Shown in pieces: positions 33,516-34,743 of a stretch of 35,235 nucleotides of DNA (the first letter of the stretch is position 1; every line of letters starts with the position of its first letter). The notes beneath the pieces are model-generated. The model saw only the letters and a list, made by a program, of their open reading frames with translations. It was not told the DNA's origin and searched no databases. This DNA comes from a virus (Duplodnaviria > Heunggongvirae > Uroviricota > Caudoviricetes): the IMG/VR virus record IMGVR_UViG_2850756110_000003. One strand, given 5' to 3'. The position numbers and the translations under genes are program-made.

Positions 33516-34355
33516 CTATATTTCCAGACATCTGTTATCACTTAACCCATTACAAGCCCGCTGCCGCAGATATTCCCGTGGCGAGCGATAACCCAGCGCA
33601 CTATGCGGATGCCATTCGTTATAATGCTCGAACGCCTCTGCAAGGTTCTTTGCTGCCGTTAACCCGTCTGGTTTGGGCATGATACTGATGTAGTCACGCT
33701 TTATCGTTTTCACGAAGCTCTCTGCTATTCCGTTACTCTCCGGACTCCGCACCGCCGTGTTCTTCGGTTCAAGTCCCAACATCCGGGCGAACTGGCGTGT
33801 TTCATTAGCCCGGTAGCATGAACCATTATCCGTCAGCCACTCCACTGGAGACGACGGAAGATCGTTGCCGAAGCGGCGTTCCACCGCACCCAGCATGACG
33901 TCCTGTACTGTTTCACTGTTGAAGCCGCCGGTAGTCACCGCCCAGTGCAGTGCCTCACGATCACAGCAGTCCAGCGCGAACGTGACACGCAGTCTCTCTC
34001 CGTTATCACAGCAGAACTCGAACCCGTCAGAGCACCATCGCTGATTGCTTTCTTTCACGGCCACTCTGCCTGTATGTGCCCGTTTCGATGGTGGTACAGC
34101 AGGTTTTCGCTCAAGCAACAGCGCATTCTGGCGCATGATCCGGTAAACACGTTTGGCATTGATCGCAGGCATACCATCAAGTTCTGCCTGTCTGCGAAGC
34201 AGCGCCCATACCCGACGATAACCATACGTGGGCAGCTCTCCGATAACATGGTGTATACGGAGAAGCACATCCGTATCATCAGTGTGACGACTGCGGCGGC
34301 CATCCATCCAGTCATCGGTTCGTCTGAGAATGACGTGCAACTGCGCACGCGACAC
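33516..34355 (-). pseudogene. insD: IS2 OrfB (InsD) body, not in the -1 frame relative to OrfA in this copy
   Basis: ...[26 protein letters not shown]... DDE transposase body; the -1 frame after the slippery site reaches a stop after about 13 codons, while the InsD body lies in the +1 frame. Confidence 0.7.
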
Positions 34356-34743
34356 CCGGAGACAACGGCTGACTAAGCTTACTCCCCATCCCGGGCAATA
34401 AGGGCGCGTGCGCTATCCACTTTTTTGCCCGTCCATATTCAACGGCTTCTTTGAGGAGTTCATTTTCCATCGTTTTCTTGCCGAGCAGGCGCTGGAGTTC
34501 TTTAATCTGCTTCATGGCGGCAGCAAGTTCAGAGGCAGGAACAACCTGTTCTCCGGCGGCCACAGCAGTAAGACTTCCTTCCTGGTATTGCTTACGCCAG
34601 AGAAATAACTGGCTGGCTGCTACACCATGTTGCCGGGCAACGAGGGAGACCGTCATCCCCGGTTCAAAGCTCTGCTGAACAATTGCGATCTTTTCCTGTG
34701 TGGTACGCCGTCTGCGTTTCTCCGGCCCTAAGACATCAATCAT
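34312..34743 (-). CDS. insC: IS2 OrfA (InsC), C-terminally extended in this copy
   Basis: [44 protein letters not shown]...; A AAA AAG slippery site present; frame runs past the expected ...LLPGDGE end to 34312. Confidence 0.75.

Follow-up and report, generated by a model that had tools for sequence, protein, structure and literature searches.

The IS2 insertion and its surroundings

The window, as the whole analysed stretch of 35,235 nucleotides is called here, carries a complete IS2 element on the minus strand (33505..34834), with 1330 bp as deposited compared to 1331 bp for the canonical element. Read on that strand, it starts with TAGACTGGCCCCC... and ends with ...GGGGCAAATCCA. The annotated IS2 of NZ_CP011416 (1331 bp, with the CDS note 'programmed frameshift') aligns with the window copy end to end, with 1330 of 1331 positions aligned, and the identity to this IS3-like element is 99.8% over the full length, including both terminal inverted repeats. 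Only three differences are seen, none of them in the termini: one G is missing in the run CCCGGGGATGGGG, where the minus-strand GGG corresponds to window positions 34390-34392, and two substitutions are located at 34092 and 33888, both synonymous in OrfB by manual codon reading. The length of 1330 instead of 1331 bp, given by the original prediction, was thus borne out by the annotated element.

Regarding the insertion site, the 5-bp target-site duplication CCCGT is present on both sides of the element (33500..33504 and 34835..34839). The gene that is hit is an ogr/Delta-like zinc-finger gene (33309..33504, plus strand; Pfam Ogr_Delta) of a P2-like prophage remnant; its 3' end is cut by IS2 and, when uninterrupted, it has 261 bp in E. 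coli relatives. At the empty site, as seen in the uninterrupted ogr/Delta-like gene of E. coli NZ_CP128578, CCCGT occurs once. Consequently, the duplicated flanks and the single CCCGT in empty-site relatives show that IS2 is a true insertion here, in the 3' end of the ogr-like gene. The insertion is a normal one, and the P2-like prophage that it hit is degraded and has hok, ihfA and pheT as neighbours on a Shigella-type chromosome. In several relatives, the C run of the right-hand duplication, at window position 34835, gives CCGT instead of CCCGT, which is another C-run length difference among assemblies, located at the junction between IS2 and its flank.

The element is widespread and multicopy in E. 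coli. With the window element as a megablast query, IS2 was found in 4,854 of 5,426 complete E. coli genomes, at up to 41 places per genome. The best 30 listed matches cover the full query, and each match in a single piece has 1331 bp, against 1330 bp in the window. Canonical IS2 was also found on tiny contigs (448-1543 bp) of assemblies labelled Streptomyces, Streptosporangium, Paenisporosarcina and Lamprocystis, which are probably E. coli contamination and not true hosts.

The window has several other features. It starts with a full gene of the mannitol-dehydrogenase family (1-1461, minus strand), and a P2-like tail tube ORF (25669-26577, minus strand, 302 aa) also matches Pfam Mannitol_dh_C; together, these suggest a deletion or recombination junction fusing prophage and chromosome. 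An ipaH-type effector gene (Pfam NEL; 3076-4538) is split, with the stretch 3414-4538 encoding 374 aa, and the intact gene of CP026828, which encodes a 583-aa LRR and NEL protein, differs from it at two C runs, 3018 and 3368. Two inverted IS4-family copies with a 448-aa transposase (20459-21805, plus strand; 22387-23733, minus strand) flank a small lambdoid FI-like gene fragment, in the layout of a composite transposon. Adjoining ogr, a large ORF (30156-33173) is split at 32069/32070 into 637 and 367 aa, and several relatives have a single product of 1039 aa; the split is common to at least five assemblies, so it is probably real.

Reading frames of the deposited copy

In the deposited sequence, the orfA frame begins with the ATG at 34743 and extends to a stop at 34314-34312 (34312..34743, minus strand), encoding 143 aa compared to 121 aa in the canonical element, and the precomputed Pfam match for this exact protein is HTH_Tnp_1 (PF01527). 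An exact look-up of the alternative GTG-started orfA of 158 aa gave no record. The heptamer A AAA AAG (A6G) lies intact in the orfA/orfB overlap, read from 34426 to 34420 on the minus strand (34420..34426; IS positions 409-415), as had been claimed for it. In IS2, OrfAB is produced by a -1 frameshift at this A6G window (PMC3219604). The run that is GGGG in canonical IS2 and GGG here (34390..34392, minus strand) is located 26 nt downstream of the heptamer.

The consequences of the missing base for the frames can be read directly from the deposited sequence. In the reference copy, OrfA ends after 121 aa and a -1 slip leads to an OrfAB of 409 aa. In the window copy, the deletion takes the orfA frame off its normal TAA stop (34379..34381, minus strand), resulting in the extension to 143 aa, and the same TAA closes the -1 frame 13 codons past the slip, so that the product of slippage has 108 + 13 residues before the stop at 34381-34379. 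The OrfB frame, which contains the DDE (rve) catalytic region, is itself intact and open for 298 codons (33516..34412, minus strand), but, relative to orfA, it is read in the +1 frame, and about 100 nt of it overlap the extended orfA. It also contains a GTG-initiated ORF of 279 aa (33516-34355), and the called OrfB product of 263 aa has precomputed matches to HTH_21, rve and rve_3 (PF13276, PF00665, PF13683). The original prediction had described the same arrangement, with a -1 frame ending after about 13 codons, an extended OrfA and the OrfB body in +1, and its frame analysis stands in each of these points.

An orfB in the -1 frame, giving the 409-aa OrfAB, is therefore present in the reference and in all 11 orthologous copies described below, and absent from the deposited sequence. 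This disagreement is due to the disputed base only, as all the other structural features of IS2 are in place: the terminal inverted repeats, the target-site duplication, the slippery heptamer and the HTH- and DDE-containing products. In the +1 frame, a TAG stands upstream of the open OrfB frame, two codons past A6G. It rules out recoding by a +1 or -2 shift or by transcriptional slippage at the A run, and with the +1 frame shut in this way, no known recoding route rescues the deposited copy. A role of the G run in a frameshift-stimulating RNA structure was also considered and dropped, as the 81 or 82 nt that follow A6G, folded with the G or lacking it, were no more stable than shuffled sequences (z +0.2 to +0.9).

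Length of the G run in other copies and run contractions in the window

Among IS2 copies of species-representative genomes, searched with a pattern accepting either run length, GGGG was found in 65 of 65, and GGGG is the canonical state of the run. As NZ_CP011416 also has GGGG, both comparisons support the claim that the window copy is one base shorter than canonical IS2; the alignment to a reference, proposed at the outset as a check, did not give the equal run length that would have contradicted it. In E. coli, a 72-nt query across the run was compared with 6540 records, taking one best match per record, and the best match contained one gap (98.6% identity) in 6514 of them. Thirteen records fell in the band of 99% or better, the 12 listed being exact matches. 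The three exact matches that were checked are all annotated by PGAP as frameshifted pseudogenes (DH5alpha CP045741, MCJCHV-1 CP030111 and MFDS1022581 CP169399).

The distribution of the short run among these records is scattered. Within the K-12 lineage, where 355 genomes match at least 80% of the locus query, it is private to one DH5alpha assembly, and all 24 other listed matches are one base longer. MCJCHV-1, DS566-1 and DS566-2 have the short run at near-identical chromosome coordinates in three assemblies, the flanking gene having been checked for MCJCHV-1. CP026824 and CP026873 possess several IS2 copies without the same G, at different loci and on different haplotypes, and many of these copies also show C5 -> C4 in the left inverted repeat. 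Moreover, records of the identical 143-aa extended OrfA exist for at least 29 contigs, a few of them short, which means that some strains may truly have the deletion. A clonally spreading, non-autonomous IS2 sub-lineage found no support, as the deletion occurs on several haplotypes and is private at the tested loci. The short-run copies flagged by PGAP are sporadic, mostly assembly-private events and not a propagating sub-lineage.

The same insertion can be followed in other assemblies. Window positions 16577-35235 are 100% identical to GenBank CP026805.1 (GCA_002949415.1) over the 18,659 bases compared, including the same 143-aa OrfA; the record was reached through an exact look-up of the window's phage sheath protein. 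A 78-aa ORF across the ogr-IS2 junction exists only where IS2 occupies exactly this site, and its exact look-up retrieved 10 other chromosomes with the same ogr site and flanks, all 10 with GGGG. The sibling CP034935.1 has the insertion as well, so the orthologous element carries GGGG in 11 of 11 other assemblies, and GGG is private to CP026805.1 and the window among the 12 assemblies with this insertion. CP034935.1 is 99.98% identical to the window over 16 kb, with one substitution and two one-base gaps, both of which are shorter runs in the window: the G4 -> G3 contraction in IS2 and G5 -> G4 at 22359, in the FI-like gene. Its IS2 copy differs from the window copy by this G only. The lesion, then, is not reproduced in the independently sequenced copies of the same insertion, as it would be in an established pseudogene, and this is compatible with a strain-private mutation. 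A genuine IS2-inactivating deletion is seen in another lineage: CP182558, CP026811 and CP011511, which belong to different accession series, have in common a one-base deletion in the same orthologous IS2, at the position matching window 34110, which splits OrfB.

When the window is compared with its nearest relatives and reference copies, each of the six one-base indels shortens a G or C run, compared with about three substitutions in 35 kb. In positions 1-17691, the closest relative is CP026834.1, with two substitutions and three one-base gaps, all of them shorter C runs in the window: C5 -> C4 at 2561, C6 -> C5 at 3368 and C5 -> C4 at 4589. To these are added the two differences from CP034935.1, at 22359 and at 34390-34392. 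The window has 350 A/T and 173 G/C runs of four or more, and five of five indels in G/C runs, setting aside the ISSso6 case below, would have p ~0.004 if the base were ignored. Of these contractions, that at 3368 falls within the ipaH-like (NEL domain) gene and that at 4589 after it, and that at 22359 reduces the product of the FI-like (Packaging_FI) gene from 138 to 127 aa.

The sixth contraction affects an IS110-family element, ISSso6 (17692-19208), inserted in the window and in neither sibling. This copy equals the annotated 1518-bp ISSso6 but for G5 -> G4 at ~18092 (run ~18092-18095), which splits the 375-aa transposase into ORFs at 17769-18263 and 18134-18943. This, too, is probably a homopolymer undercall: a transposase broken in an element that has just moved would be biologically unlikely but is what error would be expected to give, and this counts in favour of an artefact.

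The related assemblies CP026842 and CP026825, of the same accession series, each have private G/C-run contractions of their own. They also have the short alleles at 2561, 3368 and 4589 in common with the window, although they are farther from it by substitutions than CP026834, which has the long alleles. The suspected errors are sparse, at about one per 6 kb, and not pervasive. Window positions 23772-29589 are 100% identical to three contigs of other assemblies (5.8 kb), two of which were assembled from public sequencing runs. The loss of the G is a run contraction accompanied by fellow contractions out of proportion to the substitutions, the combination anticipated for a homopolymer undercall.

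Origin of the missing G and comparison with known systems

Considering these observations, the missing G most likely reflects an undercalled homopolymer in the assembly as deposited (CP026805.1) and not a mutation, and we hold this reading with considerable, though not full, confidence. It is favoured by contractions that occur only in G/C runs, that equal or exceed the substitutions in number and that are distributed at odds with relatedness, as well as by the broken transposase of a fresh insertion, which together argue for assembly error rather than mutation; the pattern in G/C runs would then reflect base-calling or consensus error. The true element would be 1331 bp long, expressing an OrfA of 121 aa and, via -1 frameshifting, an OrfAB of 409 aa, like any IS2. 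Against an artefact, the 5.8-kb stretch of perfect agreement indicates that the assembly is not error-ridden, and true mutations, too, arise preferentially at G/C homopolymers. Homopolymer error had been named from the start as a possible cause, and the orthologous GGGG copies and the contraction pattern now make it the favoured one. The accompanying claim, that this copy is defective and makes no OrfAB, holds in its frame logic, as no OrfAB can arise by a -1 slip at A6G from the sequence as deposited; the defect itself hinges on a base call for which the evidence favours error.

A real and recent deletion, leaving a freshly inactivated and non-autonomous IS2 copy without OrfAB, is unlikely, though it is the likeliest of the rival readings. 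Its products would be the 143-aa OrfA variant, keeping the HTH and zipper-like region, and a dead-end frameshift product of 121 aa, and its intact ends would allow movement only with OrfAB supplied in trans from other IS2 copies. The frame analysis of the deposited sequence is unambiguous, neither the ends nor the target duplication is damaged, and the rest of orfB is free of lesions, as expected of a very recent event. Genuine one-base deletions are also known in the same orthologous copy (CP182558, CP026811 and CP011511), and the multicopy nature of IS2, at up to 41 places per genome, makes a source in trans plausible. However, the lesion is private to one of the 12 assemblies carrying the insertion and fits with the six of six G/C-run contractions within the same 35 kb. 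IS3-family transposases act preferentially in cis, with inefficient rescue in trans, so a copy depending on it would hardly move and would matter little.

Two further readings that accept the deletion are much less probable. According to the first, for which we see only a slight chance, slippage would recur at GGGG as a hot spot, turning single IS2 copies off and on in a reversible manner. If true, this would explain why the deletion turns up sporadically on different haplotypes and, in some Shigella genomes, in several copies at once, and the 143-aa OrfA of the copies that are off might still bind IS2 ends and damp transposition. The other, in which the transposase is still made from the shortened gene, by a +1 or -2 ribosomal shift, by transcriptional slippage or by expression of OrfB from an internal GTG, is hardly credible. 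The OrfB frame is indeed intact and overlapped by the extended orfA, the 279-aa ORF with a GTG start exists, and one IS3-family group uses +1 transcriptional slippage (PMC6211511). But whichever shift or slippage occurred at the A run, the TAG after A6G would end it at once, no known +1-prone motif was seen by manual inspection of the orfA/orfB overlap, and the RNA folds described above did not exceed those of shuffles in stability. In addition, the N-terminal domains for DNA binding and oligomerisation, assigned to the OrfA-derived part of OrfAB (PMC3219604), would be missing from an OrfB made on its own.

Compared to known systems, the element has the same features as IS2 of E. coli and Shigella (IS3 family, IS2 group): the same termini, the 5-bp duplication, an orfA with HTH_Tnp_1, an orfB with the rve DDE domain, and A6G. 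It differs in the G run, one base shorter 26 nt downstream of A6G, and in the frame of orfB, which is +1 and not -1. The IS2 pseudogenes annotated by PGAP as 'frameshifted' (CP045741, CP030111 and CP169399) match the window exactly over 72 nt but occupy other insertion sites, the missing G recurring on different haplotypes. If the deletion is real, it matters little biologically: the window copy adds one decayed element to a Shigella genome laden with IS, and copies of this type are already flagged as "frameshifted" by annotation pipelines.

The preferred reading, a homopolymer undercall, finds its counterpart in the residual indel errors generally known from long-read bacterial assemblies, which resemble the one-base contractions of the window in G/C runs of 4-6. 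As with such errors, these contractions are either private or at odds with relatedness, and they disrupt genes that are otherwise intact, transposases of two IS families among them. Unlike the typical long-read case, the 5.8-kb stretch matches the three contigs of other assemblies perfectly. In practical terms, the G/C-homopolymer contractions in this assembly and its sister series call for caution, as they would give rise to false pseudogenes, also in transposases, and any tally of "inactive" IS copies or pseudogenes based on such assemblies would be too high. Set beside the known systems, the missing G is nothing new in kind, being either not a real feature or the mark of an ordinary decayed IS copy.
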